From: Candidatus Kaiserbacteria bacterium
GTDB taxonomy: Bacteria > Patescibacteriota > Minisyncoccia > Phycocordibacterales > UBA2100
Assembly: GCA_016867375.1 (NCBI GenBank)
Contig: VGJQ01000002.1
Span: 368 to 64,367, forward strand
Direction of reading: 5' to 3'
Length of the DNA stretch: 64,000 nucleotides
A program made the translations under genes and the position numbers. The notes under the pieces were generated by a model. The model worked only from the letters and a program-made list of their open reading frames with translations, ran no database searches and was not told the origin of the DNA. Below, in pieces: positions 8,867 through 62,664 of this stretch; the stretch's first letter is position 1, and each line of letters starts with the position of its first letter.

Positions 8867-8976
8867 GGGTTCACCCACACACAACGCACCCGCTGTGCGT
8901 GGCGGCCACCTATAGGCTCGTTCATTTTGTGTTGTGTTGGTGGAAAAAATCTCGCTTTGCGGGGTATACTAGTAGT

Positions 8977-11166: not shown

Positions 11167-11222
11167 GAGGGTGCGGCGCGGGCGCATTGATGCGCCCGCG
11201 CCGCATATGCTATGGTAGCCTC

Positions 11223-29273: not shown

Positions 29274-29345
29274 CTGTCGGGATGCGCCGTTTGAACGCGC
29301 GGCTTGAACGGTGCGAAGAATCTTTGCGTGGTGTATCATTTCCCC

Positions 29346-30653: not shown

Positions 30654-32045
30654 TTGCGAGATGTTCGCGGGAAGATCATTCGCGAACAATACGACCCTCA
30701 CATGATCGTGCAGAATCCTTTTGTAAAACACCTCGCCATTGATCTGGTGCGCTATGAACATAGTGATTTTGCTAAAGGAAGTGCGAGGCAGTTTGAGAGT
30801 CAGGTGCTTGAATATATCGGTTTGAAGGACCATATTAAAGGTGGCTTTAAGCCGTTGAACGAAACATACACACCAAGCGATGTGCTCAATATCGCAAAAG
30901 TCGACAAAACGCGCGAAGCGGAGTTCAAGCACACGAAGGATTTTTTCAGCCGGTGGGGGCGCGTTCTCGCGGCGCTTGAGCAGGCGCAATACCTGCTGCA
31001 CAACAAAGGCTCGCGCGGCCTCGGAGAGTTGCGCGAAAGCATCGAGCGGCATGTCGGTGCATACATCGGACGCTTGCGCACCGAGATGCATCAGCCGCCA
31101 AAACGAGTGAACGCCAGAGACAAACCGCTTCCACCGCTTACGTCGCAGCAAATGGAGCAGCGGGTACGGCATATGGAGCAAACGATCGAGCGCCTGCAAA
31201 GCGTCCTTGATCACCGGCCATCGTTGCAAGAGCAATTCAATATATTGCGGTCGATTAAAGGGGAGTTTGATGATGAATTGATGCAACTGATGTTCTTCTT
31301 GGGTTTTCGGTACAACCGTGGCTATGTCAGCGAGCCTCTTCCCTCCTATTCTCTCGAGAATCCGACTCTCGATGAAATCACGTGGGTGATGAACTTCGTC
31401 GATCACATCGTGGGCCAAGAGACACTCTCGAAATACTTTACCGACAAAAAGGCGGCAAAGTCATTTCGCGATCTTATCGATCTTTCGGCGCTCGAGCAGG
31501 GTGTCGCGCGGATGCAAAATGCGCTCGGTACCGCGGGCGCCATGCATATGCAATTCTTGCCCAATCGCGGCTTGCTCGCCGAATTCTCCGGACAAATTGC
31601 CGACGCCTGTTGGGCGACGACGCATGGCATCGGCCTGCTGGAGAAATTCCCCCACATCACGACGCTCCTCATGGTCCAAAATCCCGAGACGGTGCACGAG
31701 CGGCTCGCGGGGGCCGCGCTCCTGATAGAGACTGTCAGCGCGAATGATGAGCCGCTCCTAGTGATCCGTGGTTTGAATCCAATCCAAAATGTCATCAACC
31801 AGCTCGATGTAAAAGACTTTTATCAGCACACAATCACATACCTCAAGACGATAGCGCAGAAGCAGGGTAGGAAGCTCGCCATCGTTATCGACGACCATTC
31901 CGGCGGAGCAGCGACTAATCGACCCGTTCTTTTCACGTATCTCGATCAACTCAAATCATCTCTGCAAAAGGTACGCCTCAAATCAGCACAGGACACGACC
32001 TTCAATGACTACAGTATCGTGAATGATTGTTACCTTGTGGCTTGA
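30654..32045 (+). CDS. Hypothetical protein (463 aa; 448 aa if it starts at ATG 30699)
   Basis: Long intact ORF co-oriented with 29346..30653; no recognisable catalytic motif. Confidence 0.55.
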   Translation: MRDVRGKIIREQYDPHMIVQNPFVKHLAIDLVRYEHSDFAKGSARQFESQVLEYIGLKDHIKGGFKPLNETYTPSDVLNIAKVDKTREAEFKHTKDFFSRWGRVLAALEQAQYLLHNKGSRGLGELRESIERHVGAYIGRLRTEMHQPPKRVNARDKPLPPLTSQQMEQRVRHMEQTIERLQSVLDHRPSLQEQFNILRSIKGEFDDELMQLMFFLGFRYNRGYVSEPLPSYSLENPTLDEITWVMNFVDHIVGQETLSKYFTDKKAAKSFRDLIDLSALEQGVARMQNALGTAGAMHMQFLPNRGLLAEFSGQIADACWATTHGIGLLEKFPHITTLLMVQNPETVHERLAGAALLIETVSANDEPLLVIRGLNPIQNVINQLDVKDFYQHTITYLKTIAQKQGRKLAIVIDDHSGGAATNRPVLFTYLDQLKSSLQKVRLKSAQDTTFNDYSIVNDCYLVA

Positions 32046-33794: not shown

Positions 33795-36700
33795 ATGCGA
33801 AACATAATACGTTTCTTTGGCGCGTTGGGTATTTTATCAGTGTTTCTTTTTACGGGGCTCCACATCGCCTCCGCCGCGATCACGTCGAATACGGCCGCTG
33901 ATCTCACCATCACGGGGCAGACGATCAAAGCCTCGTCGACGCCGCTTGCGGTCATCGGGTTGAACGTCGCTGTAAATGCGGGTGAAAAACTCGCCTCGAC
34001 CTCGATCATGATCGCCGGCTCGAACGGCTTCGCGGTCGCGACCGACCTCGCCCCCCTCGGCACGGCGACATCGTCGGGTATCGCGCTCTACCGCGACACC
34101 AACGGCAACGGCCGCTTCGATGCGGCGGCGGATACCGTCGTCCCGCTTGCAAGCGCACCTGTCTTCACAGGCGCCACGACCACACTTTCGCTCACCGGGG
34201 CGGGCGAAACGCCCATCTCGAACGCGGGCGGCAACAACTACTTCCTCGTCGTGCAAACCGCTGGCGCAGCGGTGAATGGGCACGCGTTCACCGTGAGCAT
34301 CTATCCTGGCAACATTCAGTACAGCTCGGCCACTCCCGCTGGCTCGCCGACGGCCCTCACCACGAATACCATTACCGTCGACACGACGGCGCCCGCGCTC
34401 AATGCGGGCATGACGGGCCCCATGAACGGCTCGACCGGTGTACCCATCTCGACCTTTATCCACATGGGCTTCAATGAAAACCTCGACCAGACGACCCTTA
34501 ATTCATCCAACATCACTCTCACCGCGGGCGGCTCGCCCGTGGGCATCGCGGTACGACCCTTCCCCGACGGCTTCGATGTGGTCGTCTCCAACCCGCCCTC
34601 CTATGCGGCAAGTTCGCGCTTCGCCAAAGCCTCGACCGTCTCCACGGGCTTCTTCGGCGTCAACGGCACCAACACCATCTTCCCGCAGGGCACTTATACC
34701 GCGCCTGTGGTGGGCGATATCGTCTTCACCCAGTTCGACACCTTCGCGCCCGATATCGGCATCGTGACCAACAACACGCTTACCTCGGGCACCTTCGGCG
34801 TGAACGGTTTTGCGCTCTTCCGCCCTGCACAGATCACCAAATTCGCCGTGCCGAATTCGATCGGCGCTGTAACCGCGGCGACGGGTGTGGGCATAGGCGA
34901 TCTCATAGTCGTCAATACGAGCGCTAACCCGACCGACGTCAAGTACAACTGGCACGTCGTTACGACGGCGGACGCCGTCAATGGCGCGAGCTTGCGCCTC
35001 GACGGTTCGGGCGCCGCGCCCACGTACCAGAGCGGCTCATCGTTTAGCCGCCTTTTGCCCGCCGCGACTTCGACAGTCAATGGCTCGGGCGTCTTGAATG
35101 CCTCGACGACGTTTGCCGTGGGTGATCTTGTCTTCGCCCATCTTTCTGCAGGCGGGGATAATCTCAACCGGTACGCGTGGCATCTCGTGACCGCCGTTAC
35201 GGGCGCGGGCATTCTCGGCCCGCAGGGCGGTGGCGGCACCATTTCGCTCGACGGCGGTACGCCCACCTTTGCCAATAACTCGGTCGTCGCCAAGTTGACG
35301 ACCGCGGGCAACGGCGCCGTCGATACAGGCACTCCAGACGCTACAAGCTTCTCCTTCGGCGACATCATGTTCTCCAAAGTGACGGCAAACGCGGGCAACA
35401 CCGGTTCGTACGCCTTCCACATGATCTCAAACGGCGCCACCGGCGCGACCTCGACCGCGTTGCGCCTCGACAACAGCGCGTCCAATCTCCTACCCTCGAC
35501 CGCGTACGTCGCGACCGCAAGCACGGGAGTCAAGGATGCGGCGGGCAACGCTCTTGCATCACCCGTCACGCTCTCCTTCACCACCGGCTCGACCGGCGGC
35601 ACCAACACGACGCCCCCCGCAGTCATGAACACCCAGCCGCAGCAGGGCAACCAGCAATTCGCCCCCAATGGCAAAATTGCGTTGACCTTCAGCGTGACGA
35701 TGCTCGCCGACGGCGGCGCCAATGCCGTCAATAACGCGGCGGTCGTCGTGCTCTCGACGTCGGTCAATGGCGCACCGGGTTCCGCGGTGACGGCTACGCG
35801 CAGCTATGACGCGACAACCAACACGCTCACCGTCACGCCGAGCGCCAATCTTGCCACGAATACCGAGTATGTCGTTCAGGTGACGACCGCCGCGCGCACG
35901 ACGACCGGCGTTTCGATGCCCGGCGAGTATCGCCTGTACTTCCGCACGGCTTCGGCGGTCGACAACACGGCCCCGACCGTCCCCGGCGTCAACCCCGCCG
36001 CAGGTTCGACCGGCATTTCGCTCTCGCAAGTCTTTACCGCCGGATTCTCCAAAGACATGGATCCGGCGACCGTCTCGACGAGCACCGTCAAGCTCCTTAC
36101 GCAAGTCGGCGGTACGGCCGTCGCAGGCAACGTCTCGTACAACCCCATGAGCCGCTCGGCCAATTTCGTGCCGTCGGTCGTGCTCAACACCTCGACCGGG
36201 TACCGCTTCCAGATCGGCGCGGGCCTCACCGGGCCGGCGGATCTTGCCGGCAATCGTCTCGCCGCGACGTCAACTTCGTTTGCGACGACGACGGCATCGG
36301 CCGATGCGGTATCACCGATCGTCTCCTTCGCGAGCGCCGACAACTTCGGCATCGCCGTCACTTTCTCCGAGACGATGAAAACCGGCAGCGGCCCCAATGC
36401 GGCCGACAACATTGCCAACTACACGCTCGAAAGTCCGACGGGCACTTCGATCTCGCTCGGCGGAAAGACGGTCGTCTATGACGCCGGCACCAGGACGGCG
36501 CGTATCTCGGGCCTTTCGCTCCAAAACGGCAACACCTTCAAGGTGACGATCGCCACGCCCGTGCAAGATCTTGCGGGCAACGGCATCTCGACCGCCGGAA
36601 CACCCGCAGGCAATCTCTCTTTCGGCACCGTACAAAGCTCCTCAATGACGGGCGGCCAGCTTGGCCCCGGCACCGGCACGATGGATCAATCGCAGCAGGG

Positions 36701-39700
36701 TATGAATCCGATTCGCGTGAGTCCGATGAGCCGTAGCGCGGGGGTTATATCGCAGTACAACGTAACGTTTCCCGCCGCGACCTCGATTCCGCTTGGCGGT
36801 CAGATTGTGCTCACCTTCCCCTCCGGTTTCGACGTGACAAATGCCGCGATGGTCGCCACCTCCTCGAACGCCTCATTCTGCAACACCGACGTCAACGGCC
36901 CCATGAGCGGTTCGCCGTACATCTTGAGCGTGTCGAACGACGCCAATGCCGGCACCATCACGCTCAATACCGCCGGCGCCGCATCCGGCGCAAACGCGTT
37001 CGTTTGCCTCGACATCGCGGGCATCGTGAATTCGACCGTGCCGTCCACTGCCGGGTACGTCGTTGACCTCAAAACGCGCGACACCGCCGGCAATAACCGC
37101 GCGATTCTCGAAACAAAGAGCGCGGCGCCGTTCTTCCTCGGCGTTGCGGGCACACGCACGCTCACCGTCAATGTCTTCAACGACGGCAACGCAAACAGCA
37201 CGATCAACGCCAATGAAGGCATCGGTAACGTAAAGGTATTTCTGTTCTCGCCAGCGTCCGGAGGACAAATGGCGACGACATCCGCATCGGGTGTTGCGAC
37301 GTTTACCTCGCTCGCCGACGGCGATTACATGCTCGGCCTCGATCCAGGCTCACTCGCGACTGCCTCCTCGACCGTCACCTACAATTCCGCGCCTCAAAAC
37401 TTCACCGTCTCGGCCACCACGCTTGTCAAAAACATCATCGTCTCGGGCGCGGGCAGCACCGTAACGATCTCCGGCACGATCACCGGCCCGTCGGGCACGT
37501 CGATCGACATCTTCGCTTCAAGCCCCAACGGTTTCTCCAAGAAAACGATGACTCTGACCGCCGGCCCCGATGCGTACTCGATCCCCGTTCAGACCAACAG
37601 CACGTACAACATCGGCGTCGGTCCGGCAATGCCCGACACCGCCTTCATCCCGGGCGCTCCGCCACCGCCACCGCCGACGTTCACCTTCATGCCGCCGCCG
37701 TCCTTGATGGTCACGGTCGCTACCACCTCGGTTTCGGGCAAGAACTTCACCCTCTCGAGCGCCTCGAAGACGATCACCGGATCGGTCTTGGATTCCGCGG
37801 GCAACGCCGTATCGAACGCCGGCGTCTTCGCGCGCCCCGTCTCCAATTCGACCGGCGCGGGCGGCGCATCGGGATCGGATCTCGGCTTCGGCACCGGCGG
37901 CATGACCAACACCTCGGGCGCGTTCACGCTCAATGTGGTGCCGGGCACGTACCTCGTCGGCGTGTTCAAGCCGGGTATGCCCAACGTGCCGGATCAGCAA
38001 ATCACCGTGCCGTCGAGCGGCGCCAACACGCCTTCCTCGCTTACCTTCAAGCTCGGCGTCGGCTCGTCGCTCACCATATCGGGTACCGTCAAGGATGACA
38101 GCGGCAATGCGGTACCATATTCCGGCGTTTCCGGCCGCAAAATCACCTCGACATCCGATACGACGCCGATCGGCGGCGGGCAGGGCAACTTCGTCGGCGG
38201 GCCGGCCGACGCCAACGGCGCTTACACGCTCTACGTCACCAACGGTGTCTGGCAAATCGAGGCCTATGCACCGGGCTTCGGGAAGCTCGGCTCCAAGACC
38301 ATTACCGTAGCAGGCTCCTCGCTCTCCGGCCAAGACTTCTCGGCCCAAACGCTTTCGATTGGCACGATTACCGGCTCGACGACCGTGGCATCGGCCGGCG
38401 TGCAGGGTGTGATCGTCCGCGCCGAGGGCGCCAACGGCGCCAACATGGCCGTCTCGGATGCGACCGGCTCGTATAGCCTCAAGGTCCCGGCCGGCACCTA
38501 CACGCTCACGTGCGTCTTCCCGGGACAGGGCGATTCGACCCCGACGACCGGTGTTGCCGTCACGGCCAACAACACTACGAGCGGCCAAGATTGTGCGCTT
38601 GCCGCGCCGATCACCGTCACCGTCAGGCTCACCGACGGCACCAATCCGATCACCAACGCCTTCGTCGACGCGCGCACCTCGACCGGCCGTGGCAATGGCA
38701 CCGGCGACAACGCCACGAGCAGTATCTACGGCGTCTACACGCTCACGCTCGCGCCGGGCACGTACACTATCCGCGCGGGCAGTCCCGCATTCGGCCCCAT
38801 CGGCTCGACCGCCGGGGTCTCCTCGACGCAAACCATCACCTACACAACGCCTAAACTCTACAGCGTAACGGGCACCGTCTCGGCCTCGGGTGTGGGTGCG
38901 ATTAACACATGGGTATCGCTCACGGGAACGCCCACAGGCCAGACCAACATCATTACGACCGGTTCGCAAACGGGCGCGGGCGGCGCCTTCGCGATCTCCG
39001 TGCCGGCGGGGAGTTACCAGATCCGCGCGGACAAACCGGGTTTCATCTCATCGACGCCTTCGACTGTCACCGTCACCGGCGATACCGCGGCGGGGACGCT
39101 CGCGCTCACGACCGCATCCCTCACGATCTCGGGCCAGGTCACGTTGTCGGGTAGCGGCGTCTCGGGCGCATTCGTCGACGCGACGAACGGCTCGGGTGGC
39201 TTTGCAGTAGCGCAAACTGACGCTTCCGGTAACTATTCGCTCGCCGTTTCTTCGGGTACATGGACGGTAACCGCGCGCTCGATAGGGTATTCAGGTGCGA
39301 CAACCGCCTCGGTGGTCGGCGGATCCGCCTCGGGGCAAAACATTGCGCTTTCGGCGATCAGCGGCTTCACGGTCAGGCCCGAGCGCCAGGAAAACGTCAC
39401 GCCGACCATGGGCGGCCTCCTCACTAATTCCGACATCGGCAACGCCTTCAAACTCAACATTCCGGCGAACGCCTTGGGCACCGGTTCAAACGCGGGTACG
39501 GTCAAGACGCAGAACAATACCGCGCTTCCCAATATCGTCAACGGCACCGTGCTCGCTAAAAGCGGCGTTTCGATCAGTGCGGTCGATGCGTCCGGCCAGC
39601 CGGTGAAAAACCTCAACGATAGCGTTACGATTACCGTACCTTACAACGAAAGCGATATTCCGAGCGGCCGATCAGAGAGTGATTTGCAACTCGGCGTGTG

Positions 39701-40751
39701 GAATGATGCGACGGCTGCGTACGACATCCTCCCGACCACGGTCGATGCGGTGAACAATACTTTGACCGCGACCGTGTCCCACTTCTCGGATTTCGCGCCG
39801 ATAGTCCCTGCACAATCGACGACTCCCGGCGTGACGCCCGCAAGCACCCCCGTTGGCAATGGTGCGCCGGTGGGCGGCGGAGGCGGAGGCGGAGGCGGTT
39901 CCACAGGCCCCGCGCCGCGTGCGCAGATCATCTATCCGGATGGTCGTATCGTGTACCTCGATCAGATGAACGGTTCGGAAGCGAAGGTGACCGCTGCTGC
40001 GGCGCCTGCCCAATTCACGAACGCTCCGAAGTCTCTCTCCGACATTCATATCGGCACCACTGTTTCCGGTCGCTTCGTTGCTGCGCTCAAACAAGGTTCA
40101 CGCGGCAAGGACGTTTCGCGCCTGCAAAAGCTCCTTGGCGTCGAAGAAACGGGTTACTTCGGTCTCAAGACCGTAAAAGCCGTGCAAGAATTTCAGCTCA
40201 CTTACGGTGTCGTAAAGAAAAACGGCTCTGGTTACGGGTTGCTCGGCCCCAAGACACGCGCCAAACTCGAAGAAGTATTTTCTTCGAGAGCGATATCGGC
40301 GCAAGCGAGTGCACAAGGACAAACGTCGAGCGGCAACGCTTCGGCTGTTGCAGCCGTCCCGTTCACGCGCACACTCACGGTGGGGATGACAGGCGACGAC
40401 GTGAAGCTTCTCCAGATCATCCTCAACGGCGATCCCGATACGCGGCTTGCCGCATCGGGCGACGGCAGCCCCGGTATGGAGACAAACAAGATTGGCCGCC
40501 TCACCATAAGAGCCATTGAGAAGTTCCAGATCAAACATGGGCTTGTCAAGAAAGGTGCGAGCGGTTTCGGCAATCTCGGCCCCAAGACACGCGCCAAGTT
40601 GAACGAAATCCTCACGGCGCCGGTCGTGGTGACGGAAACAGTCGTCGCGACTTCCTCGCCATCCGTCCCTTCGGTCGCTACGACGACGGCAGCGTCGGCT
40701 GGCGCAACGGTGACGGCAACGACGACCGTCGCCACCAGCACCGCGCAATAG
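33795..40751 (+). CDS. Giant cell-surface protein (2318 aa): signal peptide, many Ig-like and carboxypeptidase-regulatory-like beta-sandwich repeats, Gly9 and Pro6 linkers, two C-terminal peptidoglycan-binding (PGBD-type) repeats
   Basis: Single uninterrupted ORF. N-terminus MRNIIRFFGALGILSVFLFTGLHIASA. Recurrent ..TGSV.D..G..V..A.V......G.Y.L.V..G.Y.. modules. Two copies of LKQGSRGKDVSRLQKLLG..GYFG..T..AV..FQ...GL...G..G.LGPKTRAKL at the C-terminus. Confidence 0.8.
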   Translation: MRNIIRFFGALGILSVFLFTGLHIASAAITSNTAADLTITGQTIKASSTPLAVIGLNVAVNAGEKLASTSIMIAGSNGFAVATDLAPLGTATSSGIALYRDTNGNGRFDAAADTVVPLASAPVFTGATTTLSLTGAGETPISNAGGNNYFLVVQTAGAAVNGHAFTVSIYPGNIQYSSATPAGSPTALTTNTITVDTTAPALNAGMTGPMNGSTGVPISTFIHMGFNENLDQTTLNSSNITLTAGGSPVGIAVRPFPDGFDVVVSNPPSYAASSRFAKASTVSTGFFGVNGTNTIFPQGTYTAPVVGDIVFTQFDTFAPDIGIVTNNTLTSGTFGVNGFALFRPAQITKFAVPNSIGAVTAATGVGIGDLIVVNTSANPTDVKYNWHVVTTADAVNGASLRLDGSGAAPTYQSGSSFSRLLPAATSTVNGSGVLNASTTFAVGDLVFAHLSAGGDNLNRYAWHLVTAVTGAGILGPQGGGGTISLDGGTPTFANNSVVAKLTTAGNGAVDTGTPDATSFSFGDIMFSKVTANAGNTGSYAFHMISNGATGATSTALRLDNSASNLLPSTAYVATASTGVKDAAGNALASPVTLSFTTGSTGGTNTTPPAVMNTQPQQGNQQFAPNGKIALTFSVTMLADGGANAVNNAAVVVLSTSVNGAPGSAVTATRSYDATTNTLTVTPSANLATNTEYVVQVTTAARTTTGVSMPGEYRLYFRTASAVDNTAPTVPGVNPAAGSTGISLSQVFTAGFSKDMDPATVSTSTVKLLTQVGGTAVAGNVSYNPMSRSANFVPSVVLNTSTGYRFQIGAGLTGPADLAGNRLAATSTSFATTTASADAVSPIVSFASADNFGIAVTFSETMKTGSGPNAADNIANYTLESPTGTSISLGGKTVVYDAGTRTARISGLSLQNGNTFKVTIATPVQDLAGNGISTAGTPAGNLSFGTVQSSSMTGGQLGPGTGTMDQSQQGMNPIRVSPMSRSAGVISQYNVTFPAATSIPLGGQIVLTFPSGFDVTNAAMVATSSNASFCNTDVNGPMSGSPYILSVSNDANAGTITLNTAGAASGANAFVCLDIAGIVNSTVPSTAGYVVDLKTRDTAGNNRAILETKSAAPFFLGVAGTRTLTVNVFNDGNANSTINANEGIGNVKVFLFSPASGGQMATTSASGVATFTSLADGDYMLGLDPGSLATASSTVTYNSAPQNFTVSATTLVKNIIVSGAGSTVTISGTITGPSGTSIDIFASSPNGFSKKTMTLTAGPDAYSIPVQTNSTYNIGVGPAMPDTAFIPGAPPPPPPTFTFMPPPSLMVTVATTSVSGKNFTLSSASKTITGSVLDSAGNAVSNAGVFARPVSNSTGAGGASGSDLGFGTGGMTNTSGAFTLNVVPGTYLVGVFKPGMPNVPDQQITVPSSGANTPSSLTFKLGVGSSLTISGTVKDDSGNAVPYSGVSGRKITSTSDTTPIGGGQGNFVGGPADANGAYTLYVTNGVWQIEAYAPGFGKLGSKTITVAGSSLSGQDFSAQTLSIGTITGSTTVASAGVQGVIVRAEGANGANMAVSDATGSYSLKVPAGTYTLTCVFPGQGDSTPTTGVAVTANNTTSGQDCALAAPITVTVRLTDGTNPITNAFVDARTSTGRGNGTGDNATSSIYGVYTLTLAPGTYTIRAGSPAFGPIGSTAGVSSTQTITYTTPKLYSVTGTVSASGVGAINTWVSLTGTPTGQTNIITTGSQTGAGGAFAISVPAGSYQIRADKPGFISSTPSTVTVTGDTAAGTLALTTASLTISGQVTLSGSGVSGAFVDATNGSGGFAVAQTDASGNYSLAVSSGTWTVTARSIGYSGATTASVVGGSASGQNIALSAISGFTVRPERQENVTPTMGGLLTNSDIGNAFKLNIPANALGTGSNAGTVKTQNNTALPNIVNGTVLAKSGVSISAVDASGQPVKNLNDSVTITVPYNESDIPSGRSESDLQLGVWNDATAAYDILPTTVDAVNNTLTATVSHFSDFAPIVPAQSTTPGVTPASTPVGNGAPVGGGGGGGGGSTGPAPRAQIIYPDGRIVYLDQMNGSEAKVTAAAAPAQFTNAPKSLSDIHIGTTVSGRFVAALKQGSRGKDVSRLQKLLGVEETGYFGLKTVKAVQEFQLTYGVVKKNGSGYGLLGPKTRAKLEEVFSSRAISAQASAQGQTSSGNASAVAAVPFTRTLTVGMTGDDVKLLQIILNGDPDTRLAASGDGSPGMETNKIGRLTIRAIEKFQIKHGLVKKGASGFGNLGPKTRAKLNEILTAPVVVTETVVATSSPSVPSVATTTAASAGATVTATTTVATSTAQ

Positions 40752-48888: not shown

Positions 48889-48940
48889 TCGCCTTTTGCT
48901 CGACTATGTGTCTGGTGCCCGGGATGGTACAGTGGTCCCT

Positions 48941-49711
48941 ATGATTGCAAAGACCGCAGAAGACCTACAGACGCTACGCGAGGGTGGCCGGCGGCTTGCG
49001 CGGCACGTGAGCACACTGATCGAGATGGTGCAGCCTGGAGTCGATGTGAGAGATATCGAAAGCCTGGCGCGCGATATGGTGGCCCAAGACGGCGATGAGC
49101 TCGCTTTTTTTGGCTACCCGTCGGGCAAGCGTGGTGAGAGATATCCCACCGCAATCTGTCTCTCCATCAACGATGCGATCGTCCATGGCATTCAGAGCCA
49201 GACCGATTATGTGATTCAGGAAGGCGATGTGGTGTCGATTGATTTCGGTATCAAGCACAAAGGCCTCTATACCGATCATGCCAAGACCGTGATCGCGGGG
49301 TCTCCGCTCAATGCCGCGGACGAACGGCTCGTACGCGGCACCTACGAGGCGCTTGCGGTCGGTATCGCAGCGGCGCGCGAAGGCGGCAGGACGGGAGATA
49401 TCGGTGCGGCAGTGGAGGCGATTGCCCAGAAATACGGCTTTGGCTTCCCGCGCGATCTTGCTGGACATGGTGTGGGCAGGGCACTCCACGAAGAACCGCA
49501 TGTGCCCAATTATGGCACCAAGGGCACCGGTGCCTTACTCGAACACCATCTCGTGATCGCGATCGAACCGATGATGACCTTGGGTACCGGCAATCTCTAT
49601 GTCGACAAAGACAATTTTACCTATCGCACCAAAGACGGTTCCCGTGCCGCACACGCCGAGCATACAGTGATCATCACCCCCGAAGGCGCCGAGATTTTAA
49701 CGAAGGAATGA
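48941..49711 (+). CDS. map: Methionine aminopeptidase type I
   Basis: MIAKTAEDLQTLREGGRRLA aligns with the MAP N-terminus. Metal ligands D..D..H..E..E are in conserved blocks (DVVSIDFG, GHGVGRALHEEP). Track ORF starts at 48896. Confidence 0.85.
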   Translation: MIAKTAEDLQTLREGGRRLARHVSTLIEMVQPGVDVRDIESLARDMVAQDGDELAFFGYPSGKRGERYPTAICLSINDAIVHGIQSQTDYVIQEGDVVSIDFGIKHKGLYTDHAKTVIAGSPLNAADERLVRGTYEALAVGIAAAREGGRTGDIGAAVEAIAQKYGFGFPRDLAGHGVGRALHEEPHVPNYGTKGTGALLEHHLVIAIEPMMTLGTGNLYVDKDNFTYRTKDGSRAAHAEHTVIITPEGAEILTKE

Positions 49712-49972
49712 TTAATCGTAGATATCGTGATCGCCGATTTCGTAGAAATGAACGATTTCTTTTGTTGTACCAAAATCGAAAATGATCCGATACTCATTAT
49801 TGACCGAAAAGGCGAGAAAGCCATCGAGAGATCCGGATAATTTGTGCGTCTTCAAGCGTTGATCAAAAGGATCCGCCTGGAATATTTGCACCCTTTTCTC
49901 CGTAAGTAATTTGATGGATAGAGGCAATTTCTTGTATTGCCGCATGAACTTTGAGAGATACTGTATTTCCAT
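49712..49972 (-). CDS. RelE/YafQ-family type II toxin
   Basis: ..THKLSGSLDGFLAFSVNNEYRIIFDF..IVHFYEIGDHDIY resembles the YafQ/RelE core (dHpLqG...ahv.pdwlliY...l.l.rtGtH). Convergent and abutting the map stop. Confidence 0.6.
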   Translation of the reverse strand: MEIQYLSKFMRQYKKLPLSIKLLTEKRVQIFQADPFDQRLKTHKLSGSLDGFLAFSVNNEYRIIFDFGTTKEIVHFYEIGDHDIYD

Positions 49973-49988
49973 GACCCCTTGATACTTG

Positions 49989-50204
49989 CTATCGCCAGTC
50001 TTGTAATGATTTTAAGACCTTGCCCTTGCCTTGGTCAAATTGGCGGCGTTGTGCGTATAAGCTGCGCGCCAGTTGTGCTCGTTTATACTCTCGAATGAGC
50101 GTACGGATAAACTCGCTCGTCGAGGCAAATCCTTCGCGCCTTACCTCGCGCTTGAGCTCATCGGCCATTTCCTTTGGTAACGATATGTTTACGATTGTTC
50201 GCAT
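49989..50204 (-). CDS. Ribbon-helix-helix (CopG/RelB-like) antitoxin
   Basis: MRTIVNISLPKEMADELKREVRREGFASTSEFIRTLIREY; 16 nt upstream of the toxin on the same strand. Confidence 0.6.
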   Translation of the reverse strand: MRTIVNISLPKEMADELKREVRREGFASTSEFIRTLIREYKRAQLARSLYAQRRQFDQGKGKVLKSLQDWR

Positions 50205-50250
50205 GTAATACATTGTATTACACCCTGTTTGAAATGCAAGTGAAGTTAAT

Positions 50251-50412
50251 TTAGGTCCCATTCATAAATTAAGGCTCACTTTTGCTATGCAAGTGTGCAC
50301 TTATGGGCCGATGTATATTCTTATACATCGGCCCGAAGTTCAACACAAAATGAACGGGCCCATACGTGTAGTCCACAAATAATGTACCCGTTATGTGTGG
50401 ACGAGCCCTTAA
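50251..50412. repeat. Composite repeat: module C deletion variant (50262-50310), perfect palindrome GGGCCGATGTATA-TTCT-TATACATCGGCCC (50302-50331), module B (50335-50412)
   Basis: Read directly. Confidence 0.8.
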
Positions 50413-50439: not shown

Positions 50440-53205
50440 ATGGAAACGCGCGGGATGGAGCGGACATCTTTTACCTCGTCGGAAAAATTTAAATCTCCCC
50501 AAGAGGAGCTTGCCTATCTGCGCGAGCGTGTGCGCGAAAGAGAGCGAGAGCTTGATATCTCGAGCAATCGCCACGAGAGCGATCGTATCGCGCGTCGCGA
50601 GGTCAAAGCGTATGGCGAAGTCCCGGCATCACGCGTCTTGCATGAGCATTTCGTCATACCCGAACACGAAGCAGTCCGCGAGATGATCAAGCTCGAGCCT
50701 GAGACACACGACAAACAGATCGATGGTCTGCTCGACATGGTCGCGCGCAGCGGCATCCGCAATGCGCTTTCGGTCGCATCGCGCATGAAGAATCCCCACC
50801 TCGAAGATGATCTCCATCGCGCGATCGTGCAGTATGTGGCAGAAGGTTTGCCCGACAAAGGTATGGGCGCTCCCGAAAAGGTCCGCAAAGGCCTCACTAT
50901 GGTGCTTTTCGAAGTGCATCCCCAGGCGCACGGCGAAGGGGATCAGAGCAAACAGCCGCACAAGCTCGAGCAACTGCTCTCGTCATCCGAACAGCTCTAT
51001 GCCGGCATCATCTCGCTCGTCGGTGAGGGAGAATCATTCTCGCTCGAGATTGCCGTAGGGCAGGGTACGGAAGAGGCGTCGCTGTATCTGGCTGTACCGC
51101 GCTCAAAGCGGGACCTCGCGGAGCGTCTGATCGCGTCGGTCTTTCCCAATGCGCGTATCACCGAAAATCGCGGAGATTACAACATCTTCAATTATGACGG
51201 CGAACACGCGGCTGCCTATGGAAAGCTCTCCCAGCACCCGGCACTGCCCTTGAAGACGTATGAATCGTTCGAGCACGATCCCCTCAATGTGCTCCTCGTA
51301 GCCTTTGCCCGGATCAAGAAACATGGCGAAGGGGCGGCGTTGCAGATCGTACTCTCCAGCGAAGGCGATCGCTACAACAAACACTACCGCAAAATGCTCC
51401 GCGAGCTCGAGAAGGGAAAGTCTTTGGGTGAGGCGCTGCGTGTGCCCGAGACTATTTTTGGTGAAGTGGTGCATGATCTGGCGAGCTCGATGTTTACGAA
51501 CGATGCGGACAAGGAGAAGGAGAAAGAGCGCGAAATGCGCCGTGTGACCGATTCGGTATCGGCGGAATCTTTGGGTCGCAAGATCAAGACCCGTATCGTG
51601 CCCGCGACGATCCGTATCGTCACCTCCGCACCGACCGCCGAGCGCGCGCATGAGATGCTTACGAATCTCGAGAGTGCATTCGGACAGTTTGACGATGCCA
51701 AGGGCAATACAATGACCTTCAAAAGCGTATCCTCGTGGTATATGCGCGATTTTCTGCGCGCATTTACCTTCCGCGAATTTGACGACTCTGTCATGATGCC
51801 GCTCTCGCTTTCCGAGATCACCTCTGTCTTTCATTTCACCGCCGAGCAGGTGACGACCTCGCGCGAGCTCAAAAAATCCTATGCCAAACAGACTCCCGCA
51901 CCGGTCGAAATGCCTGAAGACGGTATCGTCATCGGTGTCAATCGCTATGGTGGGCAGGAGACGCCAGTGCGTTTTGGTGTCGCCGACCGCTTGCGCCATG
52001 CGTACGTGATCGGTCAGACAGGTACCGGTAAGACGGGTCTCCTCAAAAATATGATCATTCAGGATATGCGCAATGGTGAAGGTGTGGCCTACATCGATCC
52101 GCATGGCAACGATATCGAAGAGCTCCTCGCTGCCGTGCCGCCCGAACGGTACGACGACGTGATCTACTTTGATCCGGCATACACAGCGCGTCCGATGGGA
52201 CTCAACATGCTCGAATACGATATCAGTCGTCCCGAAATGAAGACGTTTGTCATCGATGAAGTGTACGGCATTTTCCGTAAGCTCTATTCGGATGTGCCCG
52301 AGGCGTTTGGTCCGATGTTTGAGCAGTACTACCGCAATGCTGTACAGCTCGTGCTCGAAGATCCCGATACGGGCAACACCTTCGTCGAAGTCGCGCGTAT
52401 ATTTGCCGACTCATATTTCCGCGACATGAAGCTCGCACACTGCAAGAATCCGATCGTCGTGCAGTTTTGGCGCAAGATCGCCGAGCAGGCACAAGGAGAT
52501 CCGTCGCTTGAAAACATCGCTCCGTACATTGTCGGCAAGTTCGATGTGTTCCTGACCAATGACATCATGCGACCGATTGTTGCGCAGGAGCATTCTGCCT
52601 TCGACTTCCGTGAGATTATGGACGATCGCAAGATCTTCCTCGCCAATCTCTCCAAAGGCCGCTTGGGCGATCGTAACACCAGCCTGCTAGGCCTTGTGCT
52701 TGTGTCCAAGTTCCTCCAAGCGGCGTTTTCACGCGTGGATACGCGCGGGGATTTGCCGCCGTTTTACTTCTATATTGACGAATTCCAAAACTTCGCGACA
52801 CCCTCGATCTCGACGATCCTTTCTGAAGCGCGCAAATACAAGCTCTCACTGACGATCGCTCACCAATTCATCGCACAGCTCGACGAAGGCATCCGCGACG
52901 CCGTGATCGGCAACGTCGGTACGAAGGCAGCTTTTCGTGTCGGTACCACCGATGCCGAATTCCTCGCCAAACAATTCGAGCCGGCCTTTGCTGCCTCAGA
53001 CCTCGAAAATCTTCCCAATCGTAATGCCGTGCTCGCTCTCTTGGTCAATGGCAGACCCGCGCGCCCCTTCACAGTCGAGACGATCGAGCTACCAAAAGTC
53101 GACTTCACCAAGGTCGATGCACTTAAGAAGCTTTCATACGATCGATTTGGTAGTGATAGGGGAGAAGTGGAAGCCGACATCCAGCGCAAATTTGACCAAC
53201 TCTAG
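50440..53205 (+). CDS. TraD/TrwB/VirD4-family P-loop ATPase paralog (921 aa) with a ~500-aa N-terminal domain of unknown function
   Basis: Core HAYVIGQTGTGKTGLLKNMIIQDMRNGEGVAYIDPHGN.., FYFYIDEFQNF and LTIAHQFIAQLDEG are collinear with 8977-11166. The N-terminal half has no recognisable motif. Confidence 0.75.
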   Translation: METRGMERTSFTSSEKFKSPQEELAYLRERVRERERELDISSNRHESDRIARREVKAYGEVPASRVLHEHFVIPEHEAVREMIKLEPETHDKQIDGLLDMVARSGIRNALSVASRMKNPHLEDDLHRAIVQYVAEGLPDKGMGAPEKVRKGLTMVLFEVHPQAHGEGDQSKQPHKLEQLLSSSEQLYAGIISLVGEGESFSLEIAVGQGTEEASLYLAVPRSKRDLAERLIASVFPNARITENRGDYNIFNYDGEHAAAYGKLSQHPALPLKTYESFEHDPLNVLLVAFARIKKHGEGAALQIVLSSEGDRYNKHYRKMLRELEKGKSLGEALRVPETIFGEVVHDLASSMFTNDADKEKEKEREMRRVTDSVSAESLGRKIKTRIVPATIRIVTSAPTAERAHEMLTNLESAFGQFDDAKGNTMTFKSVSSWYMRDFLRAFTFREFDDSVMMPLSLSEITSVFHFTAEQVTTSRELKKSYAKQTPAPVEMPEDGIVIGVNRYGGQETPVRFGVADRLRHAYVIGQTGTGKTGLLKNMIIQDMRNGEGVAYIDPHGNDIEELLAAVPPERYDDVIYFDPAYTARPMGLNMLEYDISRPEMKTFVIDEVYGIFRKLYSDVPEAFGPMFEQYYRNAVQLVLEDPDTGNTFVEVARIFADSYFRDMKLAHCKNPIVVQFWRKIAEQAQGDPSLENIAPYIVGKFDVFLTNDIMRPIVAQEHSAFDFREIMDDRKIFLANLSKGRLGDRNTSLLGLVLVSKFLQAAFSRVDTRGDLPPFYFYIDEFQNFATPSISTILSEARKYKLSLTIAHQFIAQLDEGIRDAVIGNVGTKAAFRVGTTDAEFLAKQFEPAFAASDLENLPNRNAVLALLVNGRPARPFTVETIELPKVDFTKVDALKKLSYDRFGSDRGEVEADIQRKFDQL

Positions 53206-53207
53206 CG

Positions 53208-53231
53208 CGTATACAGGTCTGACCTGTGTAC
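53208..53231. repeat. Palindrome GTATACAGGTC-T-GACCTGTGTAC (GTC-N-GAC hairpin family); a second copy at 53722-53746 brackets the small membrane-protein cassette
   Basis: Read directly. Confidence 0.75.
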
Positions 53232-53271
53232 GTGCGGGAATGGGTGCAAATATGGGGTGCAAATATGGGGA

Positions 53272-54022: not shown

Positions 54023-54052
54023 AAAGCGCGTCCCCGGGACGCGTTTTGCTTT
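54023..54052 (+). terminator. Rho-independent terminator (CGCGTCC-CCGG-GGACGCG, then TTTTGCTTTT)
   Basis: Read directly. Confidence 0.6.
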
Positions 54053-54108
54053 TGTATGAGTCCGTTATCCGTTGTATTATGGCTGAAAATTGCTATAGTA
54101 TCGCGCAT

Positions 54109-54633
54109 ATGGCACATGTAAAAAACGAGCGTACATTTATTATTGTGAAGCCTGACGGGGTACAGCGCGGCCTTGTCGGCGAGATTATTACGCGATTCGA
54201 GCGCGTGGGCCTCAAGATCGTCGGCACAAAGATGATCGATCCATCCGTCGAGCATTATCACCATCATTACGAAACCATCGGCAAGATGGTATCGCGTCGC
54301 GGCCAAAAGGTGTTTGACGTGACCCTTGAGATGATGAAGGTTGGTCCCGTGATCGCTTTTGTACTCGAAGGTATTGAGGCGGTGTCTTTGGTGCGCAAGA
54401 TGGTGGGTGCCACGGAGCCCAAATCGGCGCTCCCTGGGACGATTCGCGGTGACTATGCGCATATGAGTTTTGCGCATGCTGACGCTCAAAACATGGGTGC
54501 AAACAACCTCATTCATGCCTCGGGAGATCCTACAGAGGCGGCTGCAGAGATCGCGCACTGGTTTGCCGAGACAGAACTCTTTGACTACGAGACGACGCAC
54601 GACAAATTTACCCAGAAAACAAAAGGGAAATAG
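54109..54633 (+). CDS. ndk: Nucleoside diphosphate kinase with a ~35-aa C-terminal extension
   Basis: ERTFIIVKPDGVQRGLVGEIITRFE and the active-site His region NLIHASGD. Alternative starts at 54079 and 54046. Confidence 0.85.
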   Translation: MAHVKNERTFIIVKPDGVQRGLVGEIITRFERVGLKIVGTKMIDPSVEHYHHHYETIGKMVSRRGQKVFDVTLEMMKVGPVIAFVLEGIEAVSLVRKMVGATEPKSALPGTIRGDYAHMSFAHADAQNMGANNLIHASGDPTEAAAEIAHWFAETELFDYETTHDKFTQKTKGK

Positions 54634-54734: not shown

Positions 54735-55040
54735 ATGAGCTACCAATACATTCATCAATCCCATTACGGTCATGCGGGTGGTGTGCACACCGCAAAGCCC
54801 ATCATGGCGATGGACAAGCACGGCAATTTTTTCGACATGAAAGATGGGAAGCCCTCCGTATTGCCTATCTATCAGACGCGCGGCGGTAAGGTATTTGCCA
54901 CCGAATATCACCCGAGCGGTGTTTCAAATCATGCGATGTTTGAGATAAAGGGCGACAAGATCCACACGACCGCCGCTCATCCGTCGCACAATGCGTCATC
55001 GCATACCTTTGTGATTAAGCCCGGCGAGATGTACACCTGA
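54735..55040 (+). CDS. Hypothetical His-rich small protein (101 aa)
   Basis: Intact ORF with a downstream terminator; no known domain. Confidence 0.45.
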   Translation: MSYQYIHQSHYGHAGGVHTAKPIMAMDKHGNFFDMKDGKPSVLPIYQTRGGKVFATEYHPSGVSNHAMFEIKGDKIHTTAAHPSHNASSHTFVIKPGEMYT

Positions 55041-60804: not shown

Positions 60805-62664
60805 TTAGTATCGTACGCTCGGAGAAGTGAATACATTCATGAGCGCGATACGGAGGTTCATCCAGATCCTCTGCATGAACGACATATTCGGGGTGAAGTA
60901 GTAGGAATTGTTGAGTCCCACAGGACTCACAAACGTGCTTCCGGGGGTGTATCTGGTCGGTACACTATACCCATTGCCGTATGGGTAGACATTGGCTGCA
61001 TGCCCGTTGTTCGTCGCGATGGTATTGAATCCGGGAATCGGCGAAAAGCCGTTTCCAACGATGGGTGCGGGTTTCTGTGTCGTGACCATAGGAGCGCCCG
61101 AAGAGAGTTGGCGGAGCTGTGCGAGTATCTGTGCGGGGATACTGGTGGCAGAGGTGCTTGCAGTCGATGAGGCAGCTACGGGCATACATGCATCTCCAGA
61201 AGTAGCGCATCCATACATGCAGACCTGATTGATCTGCACTGCGCAGACGTTGTTTTGGTAATACACGATGCTGTTTTGGCAGATGGAGCGCGGTGTGCAC
61301 TGAGGAGTCGTCGATCCGGTGTCGTCGGTGCCAGGTCTCCCAGTGTTTCCGGTCTGTATGGATGGTCTGCCTGACATTGGTTGCCCACCTGGTTGCTTCA
61401 TACCTCCTTGCATAGGGATGTTTGGCATCGGCATACCGTTTTGATTTTGGGAGAATGGTATGCATTGGGTATTCATGCGGATGTAGCCGATGGGGCATTG
61501 CTGACTGTATTGCTGTTGATTGCAGCTTATGGTCTGTACCGGATTGAGGCTGATGACTGCGTATGGTGAAAACCCATTGCATTGTGTCGGTGCACATTGG
61601 CCGTTGACATATACATAGCCGACCTGGCAGTAGGACTGGCCGGGGATGCCGATGCTCGTCGGGAATGGTTGTGAGGTCGAGGATGGAACGCAGGTTTTGT
61701 AGGCAGTCCCAGCATCAAAATCTTGCACAGCCATGGGGATATATCCGGTCGGGCAGATGCCTGAGGCGTTGGGAAGTACGACTTCATCGGGCACGAGGTG
61801 GCACTGACCGTTGACGAGCATATAATCGCCTTCACATGTCTGAGCTCCGGTATTGGGGTCTCGCTTGGGTGGGAGCGGCACGTGAGGCGTTTGTGTCGAC
61901 CCGGGAGCGTGTGCGGACCCTGCACCCCTGCAGGCAGATTGAGGTTGCATATGCACTGCGTCGGTGATGGGTAGTGTAAAGATCAAATTCATCGAAGAAG
62001 CGAGCTGATGAAGCTCTCTTTGTCTGCCATTTTGCGATTTGATGTCGAGGGCGATTCCGGCGACATGTGGACAGTGGGAGAACGTCGTGCAGCCTTTGCT
62101 GCGTCCACAGACGACGGAATTGCTCCGATCCAAACATGATGCTCGCTGATGCGCGACGGTACGAAGTGCGGCTGTGATGCAAGGGTTTAGCCCCCGCTGC
62201 CGAGCTTCGTTGAGAAACTGTGAGGCACATTGGAGAAACTTGGGATCCATGCCCTGAGATGGGTTGGATACACTGAAATACACGTGGTTTCGTTTGAGGG
62301 TGGCGGGGTCGAGTGATGCGTCGTATCCGACTTTATACCCAGGGCAGACGAAATTCGCCAGATTTTTTTGGGATTGTAATGCGCCACTATCGAGTCCGGT
62401 ACCACTCAATAATCCTTGATTTAGGCACGTGCCGACTGTGATAATCCCGCCGTTGAGTTCGCGCATGGCGACCACGTCTTCGGCGGTCGCTTTTCGGACA
62501 GTCCCTGGTGGGCATTCGGCGATGTCGGCGGCGTGGGCTTTTGGGACGACAGTTGGCGTCAGGGTCAGGAGGAGGGTGAATAATGAGATGACAATAAGAG
62601 ATGGAATGCGCAACATACTCAATAGTGTAACACTGTGATGGGTCCGTATTGGATTGCTATTCAC
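60805..62664 (-). CDS. Secreted Cys-rich protein with an N-terminal peptidase-M15 (VanY/D-Ala-D-Ala carboxypeptidase-like) domain, followed by repeated Cys-bounded modules
   Basis: Signal peptide ..MLRIPSLIVISLFTLLLTLTPTVVPKAHA. HVAGIALD fits the M15 H-x-x-G-x-A-x-D zinc-binding motif. Repeated C..GY(I/V).(M/V)N.QC units. Alternative start at 62616. Confidence 0.5.
   Translation of the reverse strand: MNSNPIRTHHSVTLLSMLRIPSLIVISLFTLLLTLTPTVVPKAHAADIAECPPGTVRKATAEDVVAMRELNGGIITVGTCLNQGLLSGTGLDSGALQSQKNLANFVCPGYKVGYDASLDPATLKRNHVYFSVSNPSQGMDPKFLQCASQFLNEARQRGLNPCITAALRTVAHQRASCLDRSNSVVCGRSKGCTTFSHCPHVAGIALDIKSQNGRQRELHQLASSMNLIFTLPITDAVHMQPQSACRGAGSAHAPGSTQTPHVPLPPKRDPNTGAQTCEGDYMLVNGQCHLVPDEVVLPNASGICPTGYIPMAVQDFDAGTAYKTCVPSSTSQPFPTSIGIPGQSYCQVGYVYVNGQCAPTQCNGFSPYAVISLNPVQTISCNQQQYSQQCPIGYIRMNTQCIPFSQNQNGMPMPNIPMQGGMKQPGGQPMSGRPSIQTGNTGRPGTDDTGSTTPQCTPRSICQNSIVYYQNNVCAVQINQVCMYGCATSGDACMPVAASSTASTSATSIPAQILAQLRQLSSGAPMVTTQKPAPIVGNGFSPIPGFNTIATNNGHAANVYPYGNGYSVPTRYTPGSTFVSPVGLNNSYYFTPNMSFMQRIWMNLRIALMNVFTSPSVRY

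Follow-up and report, generated by a model that had tools for sequence, protein, structure and literature searches.

A DUF8128-containing ATPase of the coupling-protein lineage encoded on the chromosome of Candidatus Kaiserbacteria

Type IV coupling proteins (T4CPs; VirD4, TrwB, TraD and TraG, covered by Pfam families PF12696, PF10412 and PF02534) carry a P-loop motor domain in which an all-alpha insertion separates the Walker A motif from Walker B, together with a TraG-D_C region; they are held by an N-terminal anchor of two transmembrane (TM) segments and have relaxase and type IV secretion system (T4SS) genes as neighbors. The T4SS ATPase VirB4 (TrwK of R388; PDB entries 7O42, 7O43, 8RTB and 8RTD) has an alpha/beta domain at its N terminus and, after it, a TrwB-like ATPase. 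Here we describe a gene, termed P2, at positions 50440..53205 (+) of a 64-kb stretch of DNA (the window) from Candidatus Kaiserbacteria, a lineage of the candidate phyla radiation (CPR/Patescibacteria). Its product is a soluble P-loop motor protein of the T4CP (VirD4/TrwB/TraD) lineage that shares the Walker A/B domain and TraG-D_C with the coupling proteins and, in its structural model, the all-alpha insertion. In place of the two-TM anchor, however, it has a DUF8128 domain of ~310 residues and a helical extension of 150 residues, and it is encoded by a chromosomal core gene without relaxase or T4SS neighbors, although its plasmid homologues do have them. The layout of P2 is also that of VirB4/TrwK, but there is no sequence similarity between the N-terminal domains (NTDs), the ATPase of P2 belongs to the T4CP and not the VirB4 lineage, and no VirB3 gene adjoins it.

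In the part of the survey by Quinonero-Coronel et al. (2025; PMC12102498) that is drawn on here, 5,713 VirD4-type homologues are counted in 2,918 of 3,035 Patescibacteria genomes, only 148 of them lie near virB4, relaxases are almost absent, and VirB4 is found in 2,417 genomes; exaptation of the VirD4-type homologues is raised by the authors. From these published counts it follows that about two T4CP-like genes per genome, unlinked to a T4SS, are the norm for the phylum and that at least 501 genomes have T4CP homologues and no detected VirB4. P2 and its paralog in the window, P1, fit this picture of about two homologues per genome, rarely near virB4 and without a relaxase. DUF8128, a VirB4-like fold, two paralog classes and their synteny are not described in that part of the survey, and our literature search found no mention of DUF8128 or PF26449. 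In Southlakia epibionticum, Table S1 of Wang et al. (2023; PMC10633639) contains two T4CP-like proteins, both flagged as core and Patescibacteria-enriched, with ~360–380 residues before the P-loop, which we liken to P1 and P2 by these table entries only. SEML1_0142 (1,019 residues, P-loop region 381–800) and the small gene just upstream of it are scored there as essential at every time point, and SEML1_0293 (921 residues, P-loop region 361–795) is non-essential.

An open reading frame (ORF) scan of the window gave P2 as an uninterrupted ORF of 921 residues. In the public annotation, the identical protein (P0001, 916 residues) starts at M6, position 50455, five codons downstream; this protein and that of P1 (P0284) both come from one contig, labeled Candidatus Kaiserbacteria in the P0284 record, and the GC content of the P2 region is that of its surroundings. 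A preliminary description of the locus, made from the sequence alone, had presented P2 as a second TraD-like ATPase paralog, collinear in its C-terminal part with the first. Both points were confirmed: a tblastn search of the window returned a single other match, in which residues 512–918 of P2 align with 9055..10281 at 41.9% identity over 420 residues (E 7.6e-88), PF12696 scores above its cut-off, and the quoted motifs are present, with Walker A (GQTGTGKT) at residue 525 and Walker B (FYFYIDEF) at residue 775. The gene, its paralogy and its collinearity are real and exceed chance by a wide margin.

Architecture of the P2 protein

The whole P2 gene encodes DUF8128 followed by a coupling-protein-type ATPase, as given by the precomputed matches to PF26449 (PF26449.1, DUF8128) and then PF12696 on the 100% identical P0001 and on nearly all homologues. 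The ATPase half is a T4CP-type nucleotide-binding domain (residues 496–885, 51925..53094, +), assigned from PF12696, from Foldseek matches to TrwB and from the conserved Walker residues. TraG-D_C (PF12696) scored 31.1 bits against a gathering cut-off of 22 over residues 774–841. Between Walker A (residues 525–532, 52012–52035, +) and Walker B (residues 775–782, 52762–52785, +), the AlphaFold2 model places seven helices (residues ~599–705, 52234–52554, +) that form an all-alpha insertion at the site of the TrwB all-alpha domain, and its secondary structure ends with two C-terminal helices (residues 889–919, 53104..53196, +). TrwB_AAD_bind (PF10412) reached 19.5 bits against a cut-off of 20.5 and covered the Walker A part only; P1 and the orthologues from ABY1 pass this model. 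DUF87 (PF01935) scored 17.9 bits against 23.2. P2 fell far short of the cut-offs of the NCBIfam TraD and VirD4 models (SXT_TraD, conj_TOL_TraD, TraD_Ftype and CD1115 among them), the best coupling-protein score being 44.3 bits against 366 for TIGR03743 (SXT_TraD). The VirB4 family model TIGR00929 (VirB4_CagE) gave 29.5 bits against 643, and Pfam AAA_10, P-loop_TraG and CagE_TrbE_VirB found no match in P2. Across 32 homologues with identities down to 32%, Lys-531 is invariant and Asp-780 and Glu-781 are kept in at least 90%, and given this conservation of the Walker motifs the motor looks catalytically intact and competent.

We compared the full-length AlphaFold2 model, built from a 32-sequence alignment with a mean predicted local distance difference test score (pLDDT) of 82, with the PDB using Foldseek. 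R388 TrwK/VirB4 ranked first (E 1e-14, ~900 aligned columns), followed by HerA and TrwB and then by Cag-beta, VirB4 C-terminal domains and DotL, which matched the C-terminal half only. The ATPase half superposes on TrwB with a TM-score (target) of 0.62–0.63, and on TrwB, Cag-beta and DotL taken together with values of 0.50–0.63.

The N-terminal half had been characterized in the preliminary description as an unknown domain, motif-less, strongly charged and helical, and this wording stands for residues 1–150 only. These residues (50440..50889, +) form a charged helical extension (K+R 18%, D+E 19%), as judged from composition, from AlphaFold2 helices over residues 20–134 (pLDDT 62–83) and from a consensus with the conserved motif PExHD...GIxNAL...NPHxxDDxHR, which is limited to the long, Kaiserbacteria-type forms. 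The domain search and structure prediction that had been proposed for the N-terminal half bore out these helices and placed after them a mixed alpha/beta domain (residues ~153–464, pLDDT mostly 80–95), which is not an unknown domain but Pfam DUF8128, with a predicted fold like that of the VirB4 NTD and with sequence homologues on plasmids and phages. The DUF8128 core (residues 153–464, 50896..51831, +) was delimited from the AlphaFold2 models, Foldseek, hhalign and invariant columns; its invariant or near-invariant residues are Glu-203, Asp-246, Asn-248, Phe-250, Gly-298, Gln-302, Lys-381, Arg-392, Gln-416, Asn-423, Arg-445, Glu-459 and, as listed with the core, His-465. Our own Pfam and hmmscan searches of the NTD gave no match because the model set scanned was without PF26449. 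Sequence searches of Pfam, NCBIfam and the PDB, whether with the N-terminal half by itself or with a profile of 24 sequences, returned nothing significant, and matches to uS19 (E 0.04) were rejected as chance.

The fold of DUF8128 was approached with an NTD-only AlphaFold2 model (pLDDT 79, predicted TM-score 0.69). Foldseek returned 13 PDB hits with E at or below 1e-3, all of them TrwK/VirB4 chains (E 2.7e-6 to 2e-4; 402–429 aligned columns), and the next match had an E of 0.02. As far as these models go, DUF8128 resembles the VirB4 NTD in its fold, and this link is new.

The helical extension of P2 stands where the orthologues from Wolfebacteria and ABY1 have an N-terminal TM helix. Such a helix was found in 117 of 120 ABY1 hits and in 8 of 11 representatives of the short forms, and in none of 120 Kaiserbacteria-type hits or 16 representatives of the long forms. 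Neither P2 nor P1 contains a hydrophobic or TM segment by our searches, so both are without the N-terminal anchor of coupling proteins. The N-terminal ~500 residues are not the canonical TM or all-alpha domain of that family, and no canonical T4SS partner or relaxase was found in the 64-kb window, in line with the preliminary description. The possibility that the module of residues 1–150 exists as a separate small upstream gene in the TM-anchored forms is a weak lead: the ORFs upstream of the orthologues in ABY1 and in locus L007 gave no hhalign match to it. Only a 131-residue Wolfebacteria ORF, directly upstream, weakly resembles residues 92–137 of the Kaiserbacteria protein (hhalign E 0.009).

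Relatives of P2 and the age of the duplication

Among 1.84 billion representative sequences, the NTD alone matched 854 clusters at 50% identity, 121 of them with E at or below 1e-30. The best 120 full-length hits of P2 are 896–952 residues long and 70–100% identical, and those that are named belong to Kaiserbacteria, Paceibacterota and Parcubacteria. On contigs from one genome per species, a relative is encoded in 572 of the 600 pattern matches listed; the 80 best listed, from Kaiser-, Nomura-, Taylor-, Zambryski-, Campbell-, Adlerbacteria and others, align over the whole protein at 44–71% identity. Shorter forms of 790–880 residues, without residues 1–150, occur in Wolfebacteria and in ABY1 (Magasanik- and Uhrbacteria), and a profile search seeded with the TM-anchored forms returned ABY1 (Magasanik/Uhrbacteria) proteins only and no Saccharibacteria orthologue. 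P2 is a member of an already catalogued, uncharacterized family that is typical of the phylum and not a local oddity.

The gene keeps its place on the chromosome. In Kaiserbacteria it follows a ribosomal-protein/secY/gmk/adk/map block and precedes ndk and the gene for RNase J. When genes up to six positions from the P2 homologue were clustered in 81 Paceibacteria loci, the recurrent neighbors were ndk (37 loci), map (34), adk (30), the gene for RNase J (25) and secY (21), nearly always encoded on the strand of the P2 homologue. Where ndk is present it occupies a position between +1 and +5 (+1 in 21 loci) and never the opposite strand, and map is found between −1 and −5. T4SS genes, relaxases and pilus families did not recur in this set. 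In five of the 81 loci, an ORF without a Pfam match (median 878 residues; 916 residues in L067:9368-12118) lies immediately downstream on the same strand. The ABY1 loci and L007 each have a small co-directional ORF just upstream of the P2 orthologue, and dnaX adjoins or is near. The upstream ORFs of the ABY1 loci L093 (9386–15403) and L094 (8539–14442) are 36% identical to each other, with one also in L008 (350–3410); in the ABY1-type arrangement an ORF of ~200 residues (52% identity) lies downstream and is followed by dnaX, and in L007 (1–4005) dnaX is immediately downstream. In Wolfebacteria (L005:9602-22379 and L006), the gene for a TM-anchored DUF8128 ATPase is separated by 1.7 kb from one for a ComFC-like protein and from a full type IV pilus cluster (PilM, PilO, PilB, PilT, PilC, a pilin and PilD).

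The paralog P1 (8977..11166, +) consists of an ATPase core over residues ~18–396, without DUF8128 and without a TM segment, and a low-complexity tail of ~290 residues that is rich in G, P and Q and includes a (QT)n run. Its ORF spans 8899..11166, but translation probably starts at M27 (8977), because the public 729-residue P0284 is 100% identical. The tail differs widely in length among P1 orthologues, whose total lengths range from 437 to 756 residues, and the ATPase is 84–93% identical among the best 120 of at least 8,000 hits. The gene order murD-murC-rsmI-P1-Lamin-tail-domain (LTD)/PKD protein-epimerase-glycosyltransferase is shared by the window, L099 and L100, and in the window the P1 stop codon overlaps the start of the LTD gene (11163..11924). 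The retention of the P1-LTD/PKD adjacency in these two other Paceibacteria genomes suggests that P1 and the LTD gene are a functional pair.

To place the two paralogs, a hidden Markov model (HMM) of the C-terminal domain (CTD) was scored against the relatives. CPR proteins of the DUF8128 type gave 565–683 bits, the P1 type 418–433, the protein of an Embleya linear plasmid 253, Bacillus plasmid proteins 114–158, phage G 151 and SPO1 95; two VirB4-like proteins gave ~16 bits, and the VirB4 of pTi, TcpF, two Bacillus plasmid VirB4s, the TraG of pTi and TcpA gave no match (pTi and pCW3 were the reference plasmids for comparisons with VirB4 and coupling proteins). A neighbor-joining tree over 374 match columns with 100 bootstraps, which has few taxa and an alignment model built from P2-type sequences, groups the CPR P1 and P2 proteins (95%), with the DUF8128-type proteins of Paceibacteria and ABY1 monophyletic (92%), P1 as their sister and Embleya as sister to the CPR clade (95%). 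On this topology the duplication is older than the split between Paceibacteria and ABY1. Because the outgroups carry DUF8128, P1 has most simply lost it. These sequence comparisons mark both paralogs as ancient core genes that have been inherited vertically, and the evidence for the ancient origin of two paralog classes is new. The preliminary description had taken the presence of two paralogs in 64 kb for a lineage-specific expansion and had proposed a phylogeny as a check; the tree argues against that idea, as do the stable synteny of both genes across Paceibacteria and, in the part of PMC12102498 cited above, the published figure of about two T4CPs per genome.

Outside Patescibacteria, homologues of P2 were found by tblastn in 322 plasmid records, mainly from Bacillus, Streptomyces, Staphylococcus and Clostridium, with alignments that extend back to P2 residue ~198, inside DUF8128. 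On a 24.7-kb B. subtilis plasmid, the homologue (886 residues, annotated as a DUF87 domain-containing protein) is the first gene of an operon that continues with a gene of the Replic_Relax relaxase family, TcpC, TcpE, a separate VirB4 (AAA_10, 3e-116) and the gene for a large conjugal transfer protein, and it is the sole coupling-protein candidate of that plasmid; the genes are arranged in the same way on a B. subtilis plasmid of 63.6 kb. The linear plasmid of the actinomycete Embleya has the order PrgI-family protein, VirB4-like ATPase, 812-residue homologue and Replic_Relax. pLS20 was rejected as a home of the Bacillus homologues, since its T4CP, p48, is a canonical VirD4 with two TM segments and of a different class. 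A further 39 phage records contain homologues, including gp156 of Bacillus phage G, gp27.4 of SPO1 and relatives, and PHROG 5156, a family of phage proteins of unknown function with gp156 and gp27.4 among its members by tblastn, matches P2 with an E of 5.4e-66 (residues 154–914; profile positions 28–804 of 824). The gene for gp156 (L095, 88836–93336) follows that for gp155, described as VirB-like, and from this adjacency phage G bears a pair of VirB4-like and T4CP-like genes; gp27.4 of SPO1 lies in locus L096.

The sequence relationship includes the N-terminal half. In hhalign comparisons, the NTD profile matched the N termini of the B. subtilis plasmid protein (Prob 97.0%, E 9e-11, 254 columns), of the Embleya protein (Prob 97.1%, E 7e-11, 309 columns) and of phage G gp156 (Prob 97.9%, E 5e-13, 294 columns). 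These ATPases of monoderm mobile elements (B. subtilis plasmids NZ_CP032854 and NZ_OX419581, the Embleya plasmid, phage G and SPO1) have the same two-domain architecture over ~680–760 residues, and those of Bacillus plasmids, like P2, are without TM segments; the Embleya protein has one. They differ from P2 in that they are only 22–33% identical to it, have no helical extension corresponding to residues 1–150 and are encoded in conjugation operons or phage genomes, whereas P2 sits in housekeeping synteny. As far as could be found, they are uncharacterized. The homology of P2 to proteins that occupy the Replic_Relax-associated coupling slot and to Bacillus phage proteins, as detected in these comparisons, is new.

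Possible roles of P2

We favor, with moderate confidence, a reading in which P2 is a domesticated motor of the coupling-protein type, fitted with a VirB4-like docking domain and exapted to a cell-autonomous or host-interaction function. Homology with TrwB and VirB4 suggests that P2 would assemble into an ATP-driven hexamer, and by analogy with the VirB4 NTD, which docks on VirB3/VirB8, DUF8128 would serve as a docking and oligomerization module. The N-terminal TM helix of the ABY1 and Wolfebacteria orthologues may act as a membrane tether, in place of which the Kaiserbacteria form would use its helical extension, and the motor may pass a polymer substrate, either DNA or unfolded protein, on to a channel in the envelope. 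The protein would in this way work much as a coupling protein does, having been exapted from plasmid conjugation to its cell-autonomous or host-interaction task. An origin from mobile-element coupling proteins is suggested by the hhalign matches, the plasmid operons, PHROG 5156 and the CTD-HMM scores. Domestication is favored by the relatives in 572 of the 600 species-level matches listed, by recurrent neighbors that include no T4SS gene, by the identity of at least 70% among the best 120 homologues and by the survey counts.

Several observations weigh against this reading. The Kaiserbacteria protein has no TM segment and no membrane partner was identified for it, and the window holds no T4SS gene, so that action at an envelope channel stays a proposal. 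The likeness of DUF8128 to VirB4 is at the level of the fold only, with TM-scores of 0.30–0.35 and root mean square deviations of 7–10 Å, and hhalign comparison of the NTD profile with the VirB4 of pTi, TcpF of pCW3 and the Bacillus plasmid VirB4 gave no signal. The neighborhoods, a ribosomal/secY block in Kaiserbacteria and dnaX in ABY1, would be no less expected of a housekeeping gene. The genomes with T4CP homologues and no detected VirB4, at least 501 on the survey counts, argue that at least some of these homologues work without a T4SS. One of the two Southlakia T4CP-like genes is essential and the other dispensable, and either of them, or neither, may be the orthologue of P2. The support is computational throughout, the role of P2 being inferred from sequence and models.

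The main rival is a role in cytoplasmic DNA handling, in which P2, once a coupling protein, would be a housekeeping DNA motor without any secretion channel and act on the DNA of its own cell, for example in chromosome segregation or resolution, in replication-linked translocation or in the processing of imported DNA. We regard this as rather less probable than domestication for an envelope or host-interaction task, and yet as a serious possibility. It would suit the position of the gene in Paceibacteria, where it comes after the ribosomal-protein/secY-adk-map block in the same orientation and is followed by ndk, the adjoining or nearby dnaX in L007, L093 and L094, the genes for GIY-YIG, uracil-DNA glycosylase, exonuclease VII and RecJ near some loci, and ComFC and the type IV pilus cluster close by in Wolfebacteria; it would also suit the lack of a TM segment in either Kaiserbacteria paralog, the wider spread of T4CP homologues than of VirB4 in the survey (2,918 vs 2,417 genomes) and the homologues in the lytic Bacillus phages SPO1 and G, where conjugation is irrelevant. 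However, the TM helix in nearly all ABY1 orthologues and in most short-form representatives points to a role at the membrane, conjugation operons are the setting of the closest homologues on mobile elements, and the neighbor associations differ from lineage to lineage and may reflect chance. An ordinary coupling protein of a patescibacterial T4SS, encoded away from virB4 and recruiting protein or DNA for delivery to the host, appears improbable. T4CP genes are often far from virB4 according to the same part of PMC12102498, patescibacterial T4SSs derive from the monoderm mating-pair formation class MPF-FATA, and the closest non-CPR homologues of P2 come from monoderm conjugative plasmids, all of which would agree with such a role; but there is no relaxase, only 148 of the 5,713 surveyed homologues lie near virB4, at least 501 genomes manage with T4CP homologues and no detected VirB4, and the T4SS cluster of Southlakia is described without a recognizable coupling protein (PMC10633639).

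That P2 might itself be a divergent VirB4, the assembly ATPase of a T4SS, is suggested by its domain order of an NTD and a TrwB-like ATPase, by TrwK/VirB4 as the top full-length Foldseek match and by an NTD search that returned VirB4 alone. The family models speak against it: TIGR00929 scores far below its cut-off and AAA_10, P-loop_TraG and CagE_TrbE_VirB are absent, the CTD HMM gave its ~16 bits to two VirB4-like proteins and no match to the other four, plasmids with a P2 homologue also encode a separate bona fide VirB4, and the patescibacterial VirB4s in the part of the published work drawn on have PF19044 and adjoin TrsD/VirB3/VirB6, neither of which applies to P2. A VirB4 identity is thereby largely refuted, and we consider it very improbable. 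Equally little credence attaches to P2 as the outcome of a recent lineage-specific expansion, as a mobile-element or prophage remnant or as a defense-system ATPase. Two paralogs within 64 kb, a toxin-antitoxin (TA) pair directly upstream, an IS200-like gene at 235..936, phage and plasmid homologues and a weak PADLOC match to mad8 of MADS (E 8e-17, ATPase only; HerA and DndH at ~1e-3) could be read in this sense. But the GC content does not depart from that of the surroundings, the chromosomal synteny of both paralogs is kept across many species, the paralogs are only 42% identical and split in the tree before Paceibacteria and ABY1 diverged, the TA pair is an insertion missing at that position in related loci, and no NurA, Sir2, Dnd or MADS partner genes lie near P2. 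Synteny and tree effectively exclude these readings.

A wider view, which we put forward as speculative and on balance doubtful, is that the Patescibacteria-wide DUF8128 motor is an evolutionary intermediate between VirB4 and VirD4 that was taken up from a monoderm mobile element early in the radiation and, after duplication, exapted to a core function independent of conjugation. If so, Patescibacteria would have preserved a T4CP-type motor fused to an N-terminal docking domain of the VirB4 type, and candidate functions would include the movement of nucleic acid, from the host or from the cell itself, or of proteins across the epibiont envelope or along it. The combination of DUF8128 and motor is also a candidate for a link in the common ancestry that has been proposed for VirB4 and the coupling proteins. 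Patescibacteria account for much of bacterial diversity, and their exchange of material with hosts is almost unexplored; nearly every genome, on the survey counts, has about two coupling-protein homologues, unlinked to a T4SS and of unknown function. With a VirB4-like NTD in one of the two classes, docking through DUF8128 becomes a concrete structural hypothesis. Should SEML1_0142 prove to be an orthologue, the motor is possibly essential. Homologues in tractable hosts, on B. subtilis plasmids and in phage SPO1, mean that the family could be studied there. For the window itself, the outcome is mostly corrective.

Flanking elements and other features of the window

Upstream of P2, map (methionine aminopeptidase, 48896..49711, +) closes the secY-gmk-adk-map block, and between it and the ATPase gene lie the genes of a ribbon-helix-helix (RHH) antitoxin and a YafQ/RelE-like toxin (49712..50261, −). 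The RHH/RelE pair has no counterpart beside the P2 homologue in related loci, and from this absence it is the TA pair, and not the ATPase gene, that is the inserted element. The divergent intergenic region between the antitoxin gene and P2 contains a perfect 13-bp stem with a 4-nt loop (50305–50334; dG −28.1 kcal/mol, z −7.4), and a 15-nt direct repeat occurs at 50228 and 50281. Both elements of what the preliminary description had called a composite repeat exist, but the term overstates them.

Downstream, a hairpin (53205..53235, +; dG −23.3 kcal/mol, z −4.7) overlaps the last base of the P2 stop codon; it lacks a T-run and probably serves to end or stabilize the transcript. Within it lies the first copy (53210–53230) of a 21-nt palindrome, TACACAGGTCTGACCTGTGTA, whose second copy is at 53723–53743. 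As the preliminary description had it, the two copies bracket a small gene, an ORF of 106 residues with two TM segments and its own promoter-like and terminator-like sites. The palindrome is found in this window only and in no related locus. The related sequence ACAAGTCTGACTTGT occurs three times elsewhere (7045–7082 and 33574–33588), with seven matches against 0.09 expected by chance. Co-variation of P2 with the small membrane and peptide genes downstream, which had been proposed for examination, was not seen: neither the 106-residue ORF nor a 45-residue ORF resembling a signal peptide has a homologue in ~100 related loci, which include 80 species-level Paceibacteria loci with a P2 homologue, and the gene directly after the P2 homologue is ndk in 21 of the 81 clustered loci. 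On these comparisons the TA pair and the downstream small ORFs are strain-specific insertions into a conserved synteny and not partners of P2. The 106-residue ORF had also been considered as a VirB3-like partner and was rejected, as it has no homologue in related loci and the small ORFs downstream vary by lineage. Rfam and tRNA scans returned nothing near P2.

Beyond these ORFs, ndk (nucleoside diphosphate kinase, 54046..54633, +; Pfam NDK 8.9e-40) resumes the conserved order, and after it a His-rich ORF of 101 residues (54735..55040, +) has counterparts of 53–70% identity at the same position in L001 and L014–L016. The other ORFs of at least 150 residues in the window are housekeeping genes, apart from three without a Pfam match: 29304..30653 (+, 449 residues), 30654..32045 (+, 463 residues) and 60805..62664 (−, 619 residues). 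The first two abut, and L002 and L003 have a Pfam-less pair of 458 and 460 residues that is likened to them by size only. The IS200-like gene at the left end of the window (235..936, +) was recognized from its Y1 transposase domain (Pfam 1.8e-6). A large ORF of 2,318 residues (33795..40751, +) contains Big_5, CarboxypepD_reg and PG_binding domains and is a strong outlier in composition, its GC content being 0.63–0.64 against ~0.53 in the rest of the window.

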